64,000 bases of DNA. Origin: an uncultured delta proteobacterium (GTDB taxonomy: Bacteria > Desulfobacterota > WTBG01). A program made the position numbers. How positions within the stretch are numbered: the stretch's first letter is position 1; the number at the start of each line of letters is the position of its first letter. Of the stretch, positions 15,001-21,000 are shown in pieces. Location of the stretch: positions 224,001 through 288,000 of the forward strand of contig CAWCBP010000014.1 of assembly GCA_963793865.1 (NCBI GenBank). Reading direction: 5' to 3'.

Positions 15001-18000
15001 TTGAGTTGGGTCAGTATAGAAAAGTTCCATTCCCGTGTCAAGATAAACGCCTGAACGCGTCCTGCCCTATGACTGAAGATTCCGTAAAAAAACAGTTGAC
15101 AGATATATTTTTATATTCTAGTATTCCGGAATCGAAATATCCGGAACTGAACTAAAGAGAAAGAGAGGGTATCATGGACAAGAAGGCGGTTGAGCGGGCA
15201 TTGAAAGAGGACCTGGGAGTCAAAAAGGAACTCATTGCGCTGAAGCCCTTAAAAGCGCTGCCGAAGGATATTGACGCATATGAAGGGGTGGCCGCGCCGG
15301 GACTGTGCGCCCAGATCGGCGAGGTGCTTAAGAGCGGGAGCATGTTTTACACCACCCGGGAGAACCACCAGTGCTATGAGGGCTTGATCGCGACCGGGGT
15401 GTGCGAGGTTTCACGCGAGGAATACCGCAAGGCGGTTGAGAGCTTCATTGATGACTTCCCCTACCACAAGGATGTCCCCACTGCCATGAGCTTTTATGAA
15501 ACCTGCATCAACGAGATAAAGCCGCCCAAGGTGGAAAACAGCTGCCTGGTGGTGGGTCCCTTGAGCAAAGTCGATGATCCCGACCTCGTCCTCATATTCT
15601 GCAATCCCAAACAGGCGGATATCCTCATACGCATCCAGGCCTACCTGGGAGACCTGGTTAAAGGATACGGGGGCAGCGGCGGTTGTCTGTTTACCATCCG
15701 TCACGCATTTCAGAGCCGGCAGCCGAGCTTTTCCACCAGCGATCTTTCTTGGAGGATGTTTGTGGGGCTCAATGAGAACGAGCTGACCGTGACCTATCCC
15801 TATGAGCAGCTCGCGCGGATAGCACCCCACATCAAGCAGACCGCGGATTATGTCAACAGCTTTTCCTCCATGTTTGACAACCTCGGGTAGGCGCGCAGTA
15901 ATGTGCGATGCATTCGCGGCGTAAGGCCGCTCCTACCGTCAATTAACCTGTCCGGCGGGGAAAACATATGCCCCTCAAGTGTTACGAGCACTGCTGCTCC
16001 TCATGCATAGCCCTGGCCAATCTGGGTAAGATAGAAGGAGTGATCCCCATACTCCATGGCCCCCAGGCCTGCGCCTTCGGCAACCAGATGGGTTCCATGT
16101 TCTGCAGGCCGTCGCGGCTGCTCACCGTCGGGACCATGCTTAAGAAGAGCGAGGTGATCTTCGGTGGGGAGGAGAACCTCAAACAGCAGATCATCAATGT
16201 CTACCGCCAGTATAAACCCAGGATTATCGTCATCATCAGCACCTGTGTCCCCCAGCTCATCGGGGAGGACGTGAAGGGCGTCATCACCGAGCTGCAGGAG
16301 CAGATTCCTGAATTGAAGGTGACGTACTGCGAGACAGGATTCAATCATCCCCGGTCCACCCCCATGGGGAATGATGTTTCCTGGAAGGCCATCGTTGACG
16401 TTCTCGAGACGCAGGAGATGGTGAAAAACTCGGTAGGGCTGCTGGGGCGCGCGGGACAGGACGCGGACAGCCTGGGAACGCTCACCGCGCCCCTCCGGGA
16501 AGCGGGCATTACCACCTACGCCTTTCCCGCCGGCCACCTTGACGAGATGGCCGGGATCGTTAAGGCTGAATATCTCTGTCCCATTCAGCTGGTTCCCTAT
16601 CTCACCTGCAGGCGCTTGAGCGAGCGGTTCGGTTCGGTGGTAAAGTTTTTTGAGATTCCGGCGGGCATTGAAGGCACATCCCGTTTCCTGCGGGGTGTGG
16701 CGGAGCTCACCGGCAATCAGCAGCTCCCGGGGATCATTGACCGCGAGGAGGCACGGGTGCTTCCCCGCTTGCAAAAGATCCAGGCGCGCTTCAGGGAAGA
16801 GCCGGTCAGGGCCCTGCTGGTTACCGGGCCGTCCAATGAGATGTCCATTGGAAAAATCCTTGCCGAGTTCGGGGCCGAGGTAATCATCGTTCCCGCCATG
16901 CGCAACGCCTTCGCCCGTCAGGAGCAAAATATCCTTCGTGACCGCTACGGGTCCCGCATCACCTTTCATGAAGCTGACTTTGACACGGTGGCACAGCTGA
17001 CCGATGTGTATAAACCGGATGTGGTCTTTGCCGATTTTCAGGGGCGGGTTGAGCTGGTGCACCGGCTTGTCCCCTGCCTCATCAATGAAAATTACTTGAA
17101 TGAGTACGGGTACGACTATGCCATCGACTTTGGCGAGCATTTTTTTGAAAACCTCAAGATGCCGGTTTTCAGGGAGTGGCAGGATTTGATGGATCGCTAC
17201 GGGGAGGGCAACTATGCCTGATGGTTCAGCGGGCGGTCAGCGGCGCGAGACGTTTTCAGCCGCCTCAAAGATGAAGGTGAAGGAGATTCATAAGCCCTCA
17301 TCTTTTGAGGGAGCGGTATGGGCCATGCAGGGCATAAGGGACATCCGCCTGATTTTTCACGCGCCGCCGGGATGCTACATGATGCAGCACATGTACTCCC
17401 TCTGTAATGAGTGGCATCCAGATTTTTACAGCACGCTTCTCTCGTACGGAAACGTGATGCAGGGGACAGAGGCGCAGCTGGAGAAGATCCTCGAAAAGGC
17501 GGCGGCGGAAAACCCCGCTGCGATTGTGGTGATCACCTCTCCGGTGGTGGAAATTACCGGTGATGATGTGGCGGGCGTTGCGAAAAAAGTGGGTTATGAC
17601 AGGACCGTGGTCATCCGCCCGGCCCTCGGAGGGTCGCTTGCGGAGGGAAAAGAGCAGGCCCTGCTTGTCCTCGCTGAGCTTATGGACCCGGCGGCGGAGA
17701 AGATGGAGAAAACGGTCAACCTTATCGGCCCGACCTACAACACCTTCAACTGGAGGGCTGATGTTTGTGAGCTGCGAAGAATGCTTTCGCATATCGGCGT
17801 GTCCGTCAATGCGGTGTTAAGCGCGGATTGTACGGTCGACCAGATTTGCAGGGCGCCGGGGGCGCAGCTCAACATCTGTGTCTATCCTTATGACTGCGGA
17901 GAGGCGCTTGCCCGGAGCATGCAGGAACGCTTTGGGCTGCCCTATGTTGCAGCTCGCGTTCCCATAGGATACCGGGAGTCGGCAGCCTGGCTGGAGGAGA

Positions 18001-21000
18001 TCGCCCGCTTTTTTCATATTGATGCGGGGGCCTATCTTGCCCGGGAGATGAAAAATGGTTTGGACCTGTTTACCTCGCTTCTGGTTTCCAACACCTTCTT
18101 TGAATCGAGCGTGGCGCTCTCCACCGACAACTGCGACAGCTACAGCGTGGGACTGAGCGGCTTCCTGCAGCGGGAGCTGGGCATGCACGTGTGCTTTGCC
18201 GCGGTATCCACTGAGAAGGCGGGGGAGACAGTTGCCGGGGCATGTGAGCGGGTTTTGCTCAATTCAAGTATCGATGAGAAAAAGAACCTGCTGCTCCAAA
18301 CCTCTCCCACCATTATTCTGGGCAATTATTATGATCTCAAACTGTCAACCGACCTGGGCTTTAAAAATTTTCTTTTCGCAGACATCCCCCTCATTGGCTA
18401 TATCTTCTCCGAGACCACCCCTTTCATGGGCTTTATGGGAGCGCAGCACCTTATCCAGGCAATCGGCAATGAGATCTATACCAAGATTTTTATCGAAACC
18501 AAGGGAGAGCTGGAAGGGGCCATCTCATCGGGCGAGGTGCACTGGGAACTGGATGCGGAACAGGCGTTGGGCAGGATGGCCCAGCTGCTTCCCCATTTTG
18601 TCCGCTCGATTGCCATCAAAAAGCTGCACCAGGTAGCTGATGGGATCGCCGTTGAGCGGGGGACAAGCGTGACCCTTGCCATTTTGCGGGAGGTGGCTGA
18701 ACGATATACGCCCACCCGGTTCAAGGCAAAGTTCTCAACTCTTTTTACGGATATGGAAGGCACAACCCGTCAGCCGGCCGGGGTGGATGATCCGGAGTTT
18801 ACCATGGAATGGGACGCGCCGGCACAAGAGATGCTGGAGATGGTACCCGCTGAATTCAGGCAGCAGGCGGTTGCGGGTACAGAGGCGTATGCGCGGGAAC
18901 ATGGCTACGGTGCCGTTTCAGTCCGGGTGGTGGAGGAGTATCGGAAGGAACTGGGCTTTTAGATTCGTGCGCGTAGAACCGGTAGGAGCGGCTTTCAGCC
19001 GCGAATGCATCGCGCATGAATGCGCTCCTACAGAAATTTTACATATCTTTGGCAAACGTTTCAGCGAACCCAGGGAGAGGGGCCAATGACCAGGGCAGGC
19101 AAAGGCGGGAGGGCAACCGGCGAGATTAATGACCGGATGCTGGTGGTGAAGGACTTTATCGATGAGCTTTACAACAAGACCGTTTTTCGGAACGGGAGAG
19201 CCGCCAATTATGATTTAACCCCTGCTCAAATAAAGGCATTCTTTGCTTTCAAAGAGGATGACCGCGCGTATCCCATCGGCGAACTGGGCAGGAATGCCCG
19301 GGTCAAGAGCTCTACCATCACCGACATGATTGACCGGCTGGAAAAAGAGGGCATTGCCGAACGACTGAAAGACCACGGGGACCGGCGGGTGGTAAAAGTG
19401 CGGCTCACCACCAAGGGCAGGGAAATCAAGAATCAGTTTGTCGTAAGGATGCGATCCGGCATGGAGCAGACATTCTCAAAATTGAGCGAAGGGGAGAAAA
19501 AGGCCCTGCTTGATCACCTCAAGGGGGCATACGAGATATTGAAGAGAATAAAGTAGGACCGGCAAAAATCCATAATCATCGAGGATAGCATACGCCATGC
19601 ATGACGTTCACCGTGATTCTCTCATCACAGAGAAAAAGAAACGGCAGGTAAAAAAATCCGGATCTGCTCATGCGCATGAAGGGCACGATCATTCCCACGA
19701 CCGTGATCACCCTCACGATCATGAAAAGCATCATGGCGACGATGATCATGGGCACGACCACGGGGCTCCTCACGGGCACGACCATGACCACGCCGAAGAT
19801 GCCTATGAAGAACATGATCAGGACTTCCATGGCCATGAACATGCTCACGGGCAGGGAGAGGATGAGGACCGGGCATTCGCGCACATCCACGAACACGGTC
19901 ATGATTTCTTTCACGCGCACCATCACACCCACCATCCGGAGCATGCGGGCGCGGTGCATAAGATTTTCGGTGATCCGCTGAGGGACTGGTTTGCCGCCTT
20001 GTTAATGCTGCTCCTGATGGGGGCGGGGTATTTCAAGTTGCTTCCCGGATACCTGCCGGAGGGGATGCTGCTCTGCGCCGCAGTTATCGGTGTTTTCCCG
20101 CTGCTTAAAAATGCGCTCTTTGATGCGCTCTATAAAAGGAGGTTCCGTTTTGAATTGCCGGTCGGAATCCTCCTGCTTGCCGGGCTCTTCATGGGGAAGT
20201 TTCTGGAGGTGGCCCTCATTGCCCTGCTGCTGCTGGTGGGAAGTTTTATGAGGCTCAATTTTTCATGGAAGGACTGAATAACCATGCATGATGTTGCACG
20301 GGATGCGCTGGTTGTTAAGCAATCGGATGGATGCCGTTCCTGCGGGGAGTCACGTTTTGAACAATGTTACTGAACGGTACTGGGCATTTACCAATCCCCT
20401 GGCGTGTATAATTCTCATCTTAATCGCCTGGCGCCAGGGAGAGACCGCACCCGGCGGCATGTATCTCGCACTTGCTGCTGTCGTGCTTTCCGGCTATCCC
20501 ATCGTCAGAAATTCCGTGGTATCCACCATAACCAACAGGAAGTTGAATGCCGAGGTGCTGGTTACCTGCGCGCTCATTGCCTCCATCTGGGTGGGCGAAT
20601 ATCTGGCAGCGGCCATGGTGGTGCTCATGATGAACATCGGCGAGCTTCTGGAGGATGCCACCATAGCCAGGACCGGCGAGGCGGTTCGTGCGCTGATGGA
20701 GCTGAAATCGGATACTGCCCGGGTTGTAAGAGATGGCCGCGAGATGGAATTGGATATCGGTGCGGTCTGCATCGGTGATGTGGTGCTGGTCAGGGCTGGT
20801 GAAACCATCCCCATAGACGGCAGGATAAAAGAGGGGCGGGGTGAAGTGAATCAGGCTCCCATCACGGGTGAATCTGCCTTGATTGCCAAGGGCCCGGGAG
20901 ATGAAGTTTTCGGCGGAACATTGAACCAGCTGGGGGTATTCAGGATTGAAGTGACCCGGGTTGCTGCGGAAACGGTTCTGTCAAAAATCGTGGATTTGGT

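Follow-up and report, generated by a model that had tools for sequence, protein, structure and literature searches.

In the 64,000-nucleotide stretch of sediment-bacterium DNA analysed here (the window), a gene pair probably encodes the catalytic one of the two components of an ATP-dependent, nitrogenase-like reductase, whose most likely substrate is a cyclic tetrapyrrole. Sequence comparisons support an ATP-driven, NifH-powered reductase of the DPOR/COR/CfbCD type, as proposed in the boldest reading of the initial annotation, and its Fe-S cluster would be a simple one. A tetrapyrrole substrate, such as a haem- or chlorophyll-like ring, is suggested by the gene neighbourhood, and the catabolic role also proposed there is now just one of two live readings.

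The window locus and its partner on contig C6

The locus (positions 15174–19556) comprises a DUF169 gene, an alpha-type and a beta-type nitrogenase-component-1 gene, which overlap (the beta start lies 8 nt inside alpha), and a MarR-family regulator gene. Coordinates of these and the downstream genes are detailed in Table 1. The sigma-70-like promoter match is weak alone, because six promoter-like sites were found in the scanned region against 3.2 expected. The DUF169 gene was found upstream of the pair only in family f1 (genomes G000, G038 and G034) and was absent from the other loci devoid of NifH-like genes, so that the DUF169 linkage noted initially holds for that family and not beyond it. 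The AF2 model of the DUF169 protein had a pLDDT of 92.7, yet no convincing solved fold was matched.

Table 1. Features of the catalytic locus and of the genes downstream of it, in window coordinates.
Feature	Position	Strand	Evidence
Sigma-70-like promoter match	15096..15124	+	TTGACA-17-TAGTAT; 50 nt 5' of DUF169 start
DUF169 protein, 238 aa	15174..15890	+	Pfam PF02596 E 4e-23; opens co-directional cluster
Alpha-type (N/D/E-like) catalytic subunit, 417 aa	15968..17221	+	Oxidored_nitro 1.4e-55
Beta-type (BchZ/BchB-like) catalytic subunit, 582 aa	17214..18962	+	Oxidored_nitro 3.7e-64; PCP_red 1e-10
MarR-family regulator, 178 aa	19020..19556	+	Pfam MarR 3e-10
His/Asp-rich protein, C-terminal hydrophobic segments	19597..20277	+	Translation; no Pfam match
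P1B-type heavy-metal ATPase	20288..22222	+	TIGR01525 586 bits, above cut-off; CPC and DKTGT motifs; syntenic in G012
Membrane protein, His-rich loop, weakly Ni/Co-efflux-like	22243..23202	+	NF007454 8e-5, below cut-off; syntenic in G012
Bilin-reductase-fold (FDBR-like) protein 1	23233..24069	+	Fe_bilin_red 2e-8, 34.6 bits
Bilin-reductase-fold (FDBR-like) protein 2	25310..26089	+	Fe_bilin_red 1.7e-6, 28.3 bits, just under cut-off 31
Small ferredoxin, 92 aa	26126..26404	+	4Fe-4S binding motifs; Pfam Fer4 3.5e-13
B12-binding radical-SAM enzyme, BchE-like	26531..28000	+	B12-binding 5e-20; Radical_SAM 3e-18

A domain search of the genome gave exactly five Oxidored_nitro matches, all in the window locus and a second locus on contig C6, as annotated; because these are its only such genes, the genome holds no other nif genes. 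The C6 locus consists of a MarR gene, two NifH-like ATPase genes (H1 and H2), an alpha-type gene and a broken beta-type gene. The 50% identity between the window large subunit and its C6 paralog was reproduced. The broken gene had been described as split by a stop; comparison with two genomes of the same genus revealed instead two 1-base insertions (L012, ~8781 and ~9962). Its orthologues elsewhere were mostly intact, with stops also in G013 (one TAA) and G003 (two TGA).

Only two Fer4_NifH matches in the genome were strong, and both lie on C6. The window locus, as already recognised, has no NifH gene of its own and must borrow the C6 ATPases; across the family, one to three catalytic pairs share a single ATPase set. 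H1 and H2 are two orthologous clades with mirrored topology. They were 39–42% identical to NifH, lay nearest to NifH, CfbC and MarH in trees, and kept the GKGGIGKS P-loop and both cluster cysteines in 27/27 NifH-like rows. Both occur in all 13 core (NifH-bearing) loci, where a MarR homologue adjoins NifH1 in every case, which bears out the reported MarR linkage.

Catalytic subunits and comparison with known systems

Residues Cys10, Cys35 and Cys93 of the alpha subunit fall on the three cluster-cysteine columns universal to alpha subunits (16/16 family rows), which are also Cys in NifD, NifE, AnfD, BchN and BchY. The equivalents of the FeMo-co ligands Cys275 and His442 are not conserved, being replaced by Leu/Ile/Val/Met/Thr and Asn, respectively. 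In the beta subunit, Cys54 was Cys in all 21 family rows; the same column holds Cys in NifK (Cys95), AnfK, NifN and BchZ, and Asp in BchB (Asp36). The other two P-cluster positions of beta are Pro. No match to NifB was found in the genome, which is 98.6% complete. Together, the 3+1 cysteines, the lack of FeMo-co ligands and the lack of a NifB match indicate a putative simple [4Fe-4S] enzyme rather than a nitrogenase.

The beta subunit was closest to DPOR-B and COR-Z, in agreement with the initial annotation. Its best PDB match was DPOR B (3aet_B, E 1.6e-18), the top ten PDB folds for its AF2 model were all DPOR B chains (Foldseek E 3e-21, TM 0.81–0.86), and the closest characterised protein by BLAST was BchZ of R. 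capsulatus (24% over 487 aa, 125 bits). BchZ clusters were among its nearest Atlas relatives, and it was nearest to BchZ/BchB in trees. NCBIfam rows, said earlier to be lacking, do exist, every one far under its curated cut-off: none of the DPOR, COR, Nif or CfbCD thresholds was reached. The C-terminus of beta carries two PCP_red-like modules. Outside the family and its Omnitrophota sisters, this type of tail was otherwise seen only in BchB and BchZ.

Alpha and beta would form an (alpha-beta)2 core. Each half is predicted to have one [4Fe-4S] cluster where the subunits meet, with alpha Cys10/35/93 and beta Cys54 as ligands, an arrangement like that of COR and NifEN. H1 and H2, working either together as a heterodimer or each as a homodimer, would pass on single low-potential electrons at the cost of ATP, and the cluster would then reduce a C=C bond of the substrate by 2e-/2H+. 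The doubled helical tail of beta may cap the pocket, as the BchB tail does in DPOR. The neighbouring genes point to a cyclic, probably metal-bearing tetrapyrrole as the most likely substrate. MarR probably represses the operon in the absence of a ligand.

The predicted enzyme resembles COR (BchX/BchY-BchZ; NFL Group V) in combining an ATPase with two different catalytic subunits, in the predicted inter-subunit [4Fe-4S] cluster with 3+1 cysteines and Cys, not Asp, at the beta position, and in a PCP_red-type module at the beta C-terminus; BchZ was nearest by BLAST, tree neighbourhood and Atlas features. It differs from COR in its scores against the equivalog cut-offs (BchZ 132.5/529, BchY 29/425, BchX 177/331 bits), in forming its own clade, in an alpha subunit that is not BchY-like, in having two ATPase paralogs where COR has one, in the doubled tail and MarR gene, and in a non-phototrophic host with no bch operon around the locus. 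DPOR (BchL/BchN-BchB; also Group V) gave the best solved sequence and structure match and the best NCBIfam row of beta (DPOR_BchB, 165.8 bits; cut-off 490) and shares the PCP_red tail. Unlike in DPOR, Cys replaces BchB Asp36 (3aet_B is a chain carrying Cys there), the Asp274 position is Ser, the HMM scores reach about one third of the cut-off, and the ATPases are much nearer to NifH than to BchL. CfbCD likewise combines an ATP-driven NifH-like reductase with a catalytic protein that has a simple cluster and works on a metallated tetrapyrrole (here predicted), and has a small class II chelatase partner, CfbA. However, CfbD provides one type of catalytic subunit and the family two distinct ones, and the CfbD model gave only 51 and 15 bits, all scores being below cut-offs.

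According to Meheust et al. 2020 (bioRxiv 10.1101/765248), the uncharacterised Group VI (Elusimicrobia, Gracilibacteria, Myxococcales) has NifH-, D- and K-like genes, neither NifB nor FeMo-co ligands, no more than four of the six P-cluster cysteines, an ATPase about 40% identical to NifH and a predicted role as tetrapyrrole reductase. Compared by that description, the present family is alike in its NifH-, D- and K-like genes, in lacking both NifB and the ligands of FeMo-co, in its number of P-cluster cysteines, in ATPase identity and in its predicted role, and its Omnitrophota sister operon has the radical-SAM-rich context that defines published Group VI. By the same description it is unlike Group VI in that the WTBG01 core operons have no radical-SAM genes and carry two ATPase paralogs, MarR and the doubled tail.

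Gene neighbourhood and rival substrates

The His/Asp-rich protein downstream of MarR may be a metal-binding N-terminal part that belongs to the ATPase encoded next. FDBR-like protein 1 had phytochromobilin synthase as best PDB match (3.8e-5), and the two FDBR-like proteins have orthologues in the G012 cluster with 71% and 85% identity, respectively. The best NCBIfam model of the B12 radical-SAM enzyme was BchE (207.7 bits, cut-off 481); both G000 and G012 keep this gene and the ferredoxin with the pair, and in G012 the radical-SAM gene lies directly upstream of alpha/beta. Across the family, class II chelatase-fold genes were found in 5/19 loci and FDBR-like genes in or beside four loci of four genomes; the G017 operon itself includes one FDBR-like gene and one NAD_binding_10 gene of BLVRB type. 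A geranylgeranyl-reductase-family flavoprotein is also among the neighbours. A DUF1302/DUF1329 pair (outer-membrane, with a LolA-like domain) lies in four loci, and a fifth has DUF1302 by itself at the end of a contig; together with MarR it was taken as giving an inducible or uptake flavour. Some adjacency is expected by chance because Fe_bilin_red and DUF169 are expanded families (5–19 and 1–15 copies per carrying genome); a rough estimate for chance is about 1 of 19 loci, against four seen.

That an external tetrapyrrole is taken up, salvaged or broken down was tentatively favoured over synthesis of a new cofactor. The enzyme would then dearomatise or partly reduce an imported sediment metallo-tetrapyrrole (such as haem or a chlorophyll derivative). 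Its partners would be chelatase-fold dechelatases, FDBR-fold reductases and the radical-SAM enzyme that resembles BchE, and the freed metal would be pumped out. Consistent with this are MarR beside the ATPase genes of all core loci, the DUF1302/DUF1329 genes, the metal-ATPase, efflux-like, FDBR-like, ferredoxin and B12 radical-SAM genes kept with the pair in two families, the gene content of the G017 operon, a distribution that is patchy even within a genus and the variable number of pairs per ATPase set. However, no recognisable ring-opening enzyme (ChuW/HutW-type or oxygenase) was identified, the dechelatase role is pure conjecture, P1B-ATPases also supply the periplasm with metals, MarR regulators also control non-catabolic genes, and in family f1 the core loci, with that on C6 among them, have housekeeping neighbours only and no accessory genes. 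A biosynthetic role, by analogy with CfbA and CfbCD in F430 synthesis, appears somewhat more doubtful: a metallated sirohydrochlorin- or porphyrin-type intermediate would be reduced toward a modified tetrapyrrole cofactor. The chelatase-fold neighbours match the CfbA model weakly (55 and 43 bits, below cut-off), the ATPases score nearly as high against the CfbC model as against NifH (294–299 vs 301–307 bits, all below cut-offs), and the sister Omnitrophota operon has three radical-SAM genes, with a tetrapyrrole methylase gene (TP_methylase) 5 kb downstream. Such a role has been proposed for radical-SAM-linked paralogs by Meheust et al. 2020 and in the North and Shafaat 2026 review (PMC13474568). 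Nevertheless, a core cofactor fits MarR control and presence in only part of the class less well than an accessory trait does, no enzyme was seen that would be a candidate client, radical-SAM and methylase genes are lacking from the core operons of WTBG01, and the efflux-type metal genes point outward.

The substrate may also be no tetrapyrrole at all, because the ATPases resemble the Fe protein of methylthio-alkane reductase (9fmg_D, best PDB match of both), whose known relatives cleave C-S bonds. An organosulfur compound (as for MAR and ISR) or another conjugated ring, with the tetrapyrrole-like neighbours coincidental and drawn from multi-copy families, is a reading given about the same weight as the salvage reading. 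The alpha subunit, nearer to NifD/E than to BchN/Y, is in line with it; in addition, of the 88 representative clusters neighbouring it, 87 fall in no named family at E ≤ 1e-75, which leaves most of that sequence space functionally unassigned. Against it, MAR requires NifB and complex-cluster ligands, as stated in the same review, and neither a NifB match in the genome nor such ligands in alpha and beta were found. Moreover, beta has the PCP_red tail, none of the genes seen next to the operons is for sulfur assimilation, and neighbours of the tetrapyrrole type occur repeatedly, in three lineages independent of one another: in WTBG01, in Omnitrophota and in a delta-proteobacterial MAG, whose related operon adjoins ResB/CcsA haem-handling genes. 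A divergent nitrogenase or NifEN-type maturation scaffold is highly improbable. The best HMM of alpha was nifE, but at 91 bits, and all scores were far under cut-offs; alpha also grouped with NifD/NifE/AnfD (SH-aLRT 92–94) and not with BchN/BchY. This reading is contradicted by the cluster cysteines, the FeMo-co ligand positions and the NifB search.

Distribution and phylogenetic position

The reductase was present in 22 of the 42 class genomes, including two of the three other genomes of the same genus, and its distribution was patchy even inside one genus; within the phylum it was found in 8/401 genomes, all eight in class WTBG01. Both counts reproduce the earlier ones. Restriction to the class holds within this phylum sample and not beyond it, as the only close sister clade is the radical-SAM-rich Omnitrophota operon. 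Co-distribution with Fe_bilin_red, put forward previously, is weak: 11 of the 32 genomes with Fe_bilin_red have no reductase, one genome shows the reverse, and the pattern reduces to two families without both.

In trees, whose deep nodes rest on quick searches, the family was a separate clade (100% support) apart from Nif/Anf, DPOR and COR; since references of Groups IV-A to IV-F, VI and VIII are absent from these trees, its status as a new superfamily member cannot be affirmed. No protein named Elusimicrobia was among the 23 matches listed (E ≤ 1e-20) for the sister beta subunit. Single MAG proteins of the family were labelled Spirochaetota or Gammaproteobacteria by their depositors. Two Fe-protein paralogs and MarR, both in 13/13 core loci, and the duplicated PCP_red tail are unusual fixed traits.

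Organization of the two loci

Open reading frames were found exactly at the positions that the initial annotation had assigned to the genes of the window. The alpha-type and beta-type genes overlapped by 8 nt. Between 15174 and about 30000, all genes considered real were on the plus strand, with short gaps. The source genome contained five Oxidored_nitro matches, spread over two loci; its two strong matches to the NifH family both lay on contig C6. The second locus, situated there (L012), comprised in this order genes for a MarR-family protein, two NifH-like proteins of 279 and 297 aa (H1 and H2), an alpha-type subunit of 411 aa and a beta-type subunit in two pieces. 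The MarR protein of C6 matched PF01047 at 1.6e-9 and the winged-helix domain was present in both copies; that of the window reached no NCBIfam equivalog cut-off.

Features of the window, in gene order, and of other loci mentioned in the text (FDBR-like, bilin-reductase fold)
Feature	Position	Strand	Domain or motif
Broken aspS, gatA and gatB homologues	10731-14876	-	
DUF169 protein	15174-15890	+	PF02596, 4e-23
Alpha-type subunit, 417 aa	15968-17221	+	Oxidored_nitro, 1.4e-55
Beta-type subunit, 582 aa	17214-18962	+	Oxidored_nitro, 3.7e-64; C-terminal PCP_red, 1e-10
MarR-family protein	19020-19556	+	PF01047, 3e-10
Metal-efflux-like module: His/Asp-rich membrane ORF, P1B-ATPase, His-rich efflux-like membrane protein	19597-23202	+	CPC motif (P1B-ATPase)
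FDBR-like protein 1	23233-24069	+	Fe_bilin_red
Unknown gene		+	
Two unannotated ORFs	24618-25243	-	
FDBR-like protein 2	25310-26089	+	Fe_bilin_red
Small ferredoxin		+	4Fe-4S motifs
BchE-like B12 radical-SAM protein		+	
metK (SAM synthetase) and ahcY (SAH hydrolase)	28113-29997	+	
FDBR-like gene just upstream of the window	C14:217451-218047		Fe_bilin_red
Palindrome, 20 nt, C6 locus	L012 4741-4760		
Genes following the full operon of G030:C205	L053 9696-13407		
Distant NifH-alpha-beta operon	L064 2741-9165		

The beta-type gene of C6 had been described as split by a stop. Comparison with two genomes of the same genus revealed instead one extra G at about position 8781 of L012 and one extra base near 9962, and a premature stop as the cause of the split was therefore rejected. 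Orthologues of this gene were mostly intact elsewhere, and stops were also present in two other genomes, G013 (one TAA) and G003 (two TGA). Indel errors of the assembly are a plausible source of the frameshifts, since aspS, gatA and gatB of the window are fragmented as well; a real pseudogene is the alternative.

These three homologues were fragmented into eight or more short ORFs, with the OB fold, tRNA-synt_2 (twice) and GAD domains of aspS, the Amidase domain of gatA and GatB_N (twice) of gatB. The pattern suggests clustered assembly indel errors, or pseudogenes.

Cluster ligands and comparison with named enzymes

The alpha-type sequences were aligned with NifD, NifE, AnfD, BchN and BchY of R. 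capsulatus, taken from loci of genome G042. The columns of Cys10, Cys35 and Cys93 held cysteine in every reference and in every family row (16/16), while the FeMo-co ligand columns (Cys275 and His442) were occupied in alpha by Leu, Ile, Val, Met or Thr and by Asn, respectively. In beta, Cys54 was conserved in all 21 family rows; its column is Cys in NifK, AnfK, NifN and BchZ and Asp in BchB. The remaining two P-cluster columns of beta were Pro, so that one of three P-cluster cysteines was kept. No match to NifB (TIGR01290) was detected in the source genome, which is 98.6% complete. The P-loop and both cluster cysteines were present in the NifH-like proteins (27/27 rows).

In DPOR, the NB cluster takes its fourth ligand from Asp36 of BchB, and Asp274 of that subunit is the proton donor; the inter-subunit [4Fe-4S] cluster of COR has all-cysteine (3+1) ligation. 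With the Cys trio of alpha and Cys54 of beta, and with neither FeMo-co ligands nor NifB, the family is predicted to have one [4Fe-4S] cluster between its subunits, with the 3+1 Cys ligation of COR and NifEN; the features of these sequences do not fit a P-cluster or a complex cofactor. The presence of Cys54 also explains the best PDB match, 3aet_B, a BchB chain with Cys at the Asp36 position.

The ten PDB folds closest to the AlphaFold model of beta (pLDDT 82.5) were DPOR B chains (E 3e-21, target TM 0.81-0.86); nitrogenase beta chains and NifN came next. By BLAST, the closest characterised protein was BchZ of R. capsulatus (24% over 487 aa, 125 bits), with BchB of the same organism at 72 bits, and the Atlas features likewise indicated BchZ clusters. 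The affinity to DPOR-B and COR-Z proposed in the initial annotation was recovered, the former by PDB sequence match and fold and the latter by BLAST. The C-terminal PCP_red helical domain of the DPOR B subunit is shared by the window beta, in which it covers residues 533-576 (PF08369). The alignment showed this tail to be doubled: the first copy, unscored by Pfam, aligns with the single tails of BchB and BchZ, and the second is the one scored by Pfam. The Omnitrophota relatives have the first copy only.

Four extra cysteines, Cys46 of alpha and Cys222, Cys228 and Cys344 of beta, vary little or not at all within the family. The Omnitrophota sisters share Cys46, Cys222 and Cys228; Cys46, Cys222 and Cys344 are missing from the aligned Nif and Bch references, and Cys228 recurs in NifK only. 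A second metal site, or a redox-active pair, could be made up of these residues.

It had been stated that NCBIfam returned no row for the window pair; many were in fact obtained for alpha and beta, all far under the curated cut-offs (the best rows being DPOR BchB for beta and nifE for alpha).

NCBIfam scores of the reductase subunits and ATPases against models of named systems
Model	Query	Score (bits)	Cut-off (bits)
DPOR BchB	Window beta	165.8	490
DPOR BchN	Window pair	66.1	420
DPOR BchL	ATPases	211-214	345
COR BchZ	Window beta	132.5	529
COR BchY	Window pair	29.4	425
COR BchX	ATPases	177-178	331
nifE	Window alpha	91	505
nifH	ATPases	301-307 (below cut-off)	
CfbD		51.4 and 15	268
CfbC	ATPases	294-299	402

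By these scores and its residues the enzyme is placed outside DPOR, COR, Nif/Anf and CfbCD; it appears to work like COR and DPOR, yet stands apart from both in membership. It differs from DPOR in the Asp36 equivalent, replaced by Cys throughout the family, and in that of Asp274, which is Ser in the window protein. The 3+1 all-Cys ligation of COR is matched at the level of sequence, whereas in the trees the family lies outside the BchZ clade and its alpha does not join BchY. Compared with nitrogenase proper (Nif/Vnf/Anf), the family lacks FeMo-co ligands and the six P-cluster cysteines, and NifB is unmatched in the source genome; the ATPases are 39-42% identical to NifH and AnfH of R. capsulatus. 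CfbCD (Group IV-B) has a single CfbD-type catalytic subunit, in contrast to the two distinct subunits of this family.

Two sources (PMC13474568; 10.1101/765248) describe Group VI by an NflH carrying the P-loop and Cys97/Cys132, by the absence of NifB and of FeMo-co ligands, and by at most four of six P-cluster cysteines. All these traits of Group VI (Meheust 2020) are shared by the family, the comparison being with the description only. From 0 to 13 radical-SAM genes per Group VI locus are reported in 10.1101/765248. None occurred in the 13 NifH-bearing (core) WTBG01 loci, and one B12 radical-SAM gene accompanied the pair lacking NifH in two genomes. The context of the Omnitrophota sister operon, with three radical-SAM genes, matches the Group VI description given in PMC13474568 and 10.1101/765248.

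Distribution, conserved design and phylogenetic placement

The beta subunit was detected in 22 of 42 genomes of the class and in eight of 401 evenly sampled genomes of the phylum, all eight inside the class, reproducing the distribution first reported. Among the families of the class it was present in 3/10 genomes of f1 plus the source genome, 13/17 of f2, 4/4 of f3 and 1/1 of f5, and absent from f4 (0/8) and f6 (0/1).

A total of 18 loci from 16 genomes were compared and their ORFs clustered. NifH1, NifH2, alpha and beta were consecutive in 13 loci, in every one of which a MarR homologue adjoined NifH1 (tblastn), bearing out the MarR linkage noted initially. H1 and H2 were 55% identical and formed two orthologous clades (13 rows, SH-aLRT 99; 14 rows, SH-aLRT 92) with mirrored internal branching; therefore, the duplication is old and both copies have been retained. 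A heterodimeric H1-H2 Fe protein is suggested by this pattern, two homodimers being a possible arrangement. The pairs devoid of ATPases came in two forms, that of the window and a second one in families f3 and f5. The window-type pair was found in nine genomes (62-100% identity), eight of which, the source genome included, also carried the other paralog; the exception, G008, is 90% complete.

In word-indexed protein searches the family was tight, at 46-100% identity, followed by a gap down to 24%. An exhaustive search of representatives yielded two nearer outliers, P0120 (42%) and P0121 (38%), and beyond them a large cloud of unnamed Oxidored_nitro proteins of about 420 aa; 87 of 88 further representatives had no NCBIfam match at E<=1e-75, and true BchB and BchZ representatives fell within the best 150. 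P0121 is the beta protein of a Candidatus Omnitrophota MAG, in a locus with the order radical-SAM/SPASM, one NifH-like gene, alpha, beta, radical SAM, unknown, radical SAM, GlmS and tetrapyrrole methylase. Its nearest relatives were another Omnitrophota protein (56%) and then the WTBG01 family (37-41%); the 23 matches listed at E<=1e-20 included none with an Elusimicrobia name. The protein search with H2 gave 5877 matches; the 120 listed shared 57-99% identity with H2, and again none had an Elusimicrobia name.

Three quick trees were calculated: beta (82 rows, LG+G4), alpha plus beta with the R. capsulatus references (74 rows, LG+G4) and a 45-row subset (C20 mixture model). Rows were picked by search rank and by locus, representatives shorter than 380 aa were left out, and the trees were built without reference sequences of Groups IV-A to IV-F, VI and VIII. 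In all three, family beta (SH-aLRT 97-99) and three outliers constituted one clade with 100% support, apart from the clades of BchZ (four rows; 100) and BchB (99-100). The NifD/E/AnfD clade was separate (99-100) in the two trees that include it, and family alpha and Omnitrophota alpha formed one clade (100%). Tentatively, the beta clade joins a group of BchZ and three unnamed proteins (SH-aLRT 86), within a wider clade (95-97), and the alpha clade joins NifD/NifE/AnfD (SH-aLRT 92-94); BchN and BchY had long branches. The single Omnitrophota ATPase grouped with H1/H2 in a mixture-model tree of the ATPases, used for this grouping only, as its BchL and BchX branches were saturated (length 10).

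Gene neighbourhood and possible role

The block from the P1B-ATPase to the radical-SAM gene is conserved in G012, a genome of a different family, immediately upstream of the alpha/beta pair. Five loci of three families encoded chelatase-fold proteins of class II (CbiX and ferrochelatase Pfam matches, weak CfbA/HemH rows). Four loci had a DUF1302/DUF1329 outer-membrane pair, and in one more DUF1302 stood by itself at the end of a contig. A flavoprotein of the geranylgeranyl-reductase family was also found among the neighbours. Two genes within the operon of G017 encode an FDBR-like protein and a BLVRB-type NAD_binding_10 protein, and near the operon of G030 there are two chelatase-fold genes, FeoB and one FDBR-like gene. 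A more distant NifH-alpha-beta operon of a delta-proteobacterial MAG (L064) adjoins ResB/CcsA genes of cytochrome c haem handling.

The source genome had 14 Fe_bilin_red matches (11 over the Pfam cut-off) and eight DUF169 matches. Fe_bilin_red was present in 32 of 42 class genomes, with 5-19 copies in each and none in f4 and f6, and DUF169 in 39 of 42, with 1-15 per genome. Both being multi-copy, some adjacency to the locus is expected by chance. The reductase and the FDBR expansion, initially proposed to be co-distributed, agreed in that two families lack both, but 11 FDBR-positive class genomes were without the reductase and one reductase-positive genome was without FDBR. Such an expansion in a non-phototroph is striking in itself.

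From its sequence features, the enzyme is very probably an ATP-driven two-component reductase that would reduce a C=C bond through the 3+1-Cys [4Fe-4S] cluster; for the window pair, the C6 ATPases would act in trans. The fuller statement, which adds a cyclic tetrapyrrole as the likeliest substrate of this reductase, is moderately favoured. A substrate other than a tetrapyrrole is rather unlikely, although given some weight in view of the leaning of the ATPases and the alpha subunit to the Nif/Group IV side. As for the role, uptake, salvage or breakdown of a tetrapyrrole is put forward only tentatively, and is leaned to over cofactor synthesis, itself improbable, for these reasons: MarR linkage is universal in the core loci, the outer-membrane genes are of the uptake type and the metal genes of the efflux type, the distribution is patchy, and there are several catalytic pairs per ATPase set.

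In its most specific form, which is quite unlikely as a whole, the preference for uptake and breakdown would make this the first enzyme in the nitrogenase superfamily with a catabolic role and induction by its substrate; equipped with a heterodimeric H1-H2 Fe protein, it would break the aromaticity of imported metallo-tetrapyrroles in anoxic sediment. The substrates would be haem, chlorophyll or geoporphyrin derivatives, and the product would feed chelatase-fold dechelatases, a BchE-like radical-SAM enzyme and the expanded bilin-reductase-fold set, in an anaerobic pigment-degradation pathway analogous in its logic to ATP-dependent benzoyl-CoA reduction. An external tetrapyrrole as substrate would open the unstudied question of pigment degradation without oxygen, and a biosynthetic role would point to an unknown cofactor in bacteria of the sulfate-reducer type. 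Under either reading, the mixture of NifD/E-like, BchZ-like and NifH-like parts bears on the origin of DPOR and COR.

According to a 2026 review of nitrogenase-like enzymes (PMC13474568), the many uncharacterised nitrogenase-like clades are the main gap of the field and gene context has so far been of little help in finding their substrates. The context of this clade is unusually informative, with MarR, chelatase-fold, bilin-reductase-fold, BchE-like, ferredoxin, metal-efflux and outer-membrane uptake-type genes. Two co-evolving Fe-protein paralogs and a doubled PCP_red tail are design features of which, as of the clade and of paired NifH paralogs in one NFL operon, no description was found in the literature searched, supplements excluded.

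The DUF169 protein had no PDB sequence match at E<=1. Its AF2 model (pLDDT 92.7) gave no convincing solved fold with Foldseek (best E 0.02, TM 0.24) or with VIA-align wide (best Z 4.9, none >=5), and no function was given in the titles or abstract openings of the listed literature naming DUF169. Cys45, Cys67 and Cys171 are invariant or nearly so in this protein.

The MarR gene of C6 is preceded, at a distance of 55 nt, by a near-perfect palindrome. A shared MarR operator was discarded as a candidate, since the palindrome had no match in the window at <=3 mismatches and no counterpart in any other compared locus; no inverted repeat was found upstream of the window DUF169 gene.

In L053 the full operon is followed by a second MarR-like gene and a third alpha-type gene that has no beta partner, then by a tandem pair of chelatase-fold genes and by FeoB. 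The beta protein of L064 (P0127) groups near BchZ, and its operon comes directly after ResB-like, CcsA and LysR-regulator genes. In the metal-efflux-like module of the window, the His/Asp-rich ORF, with C-terminal membrane segments, directly precedes a P1B-ATPase without a metal-binding domain of its own, the two possibly being one split gene; next comes a membrane protein in which a long loop is rich in His. The metK and ahcY genes, directly after the B12 radical-SAM gene and on the same strand, may be housekeeping genes or a local supply for SAM recycling.
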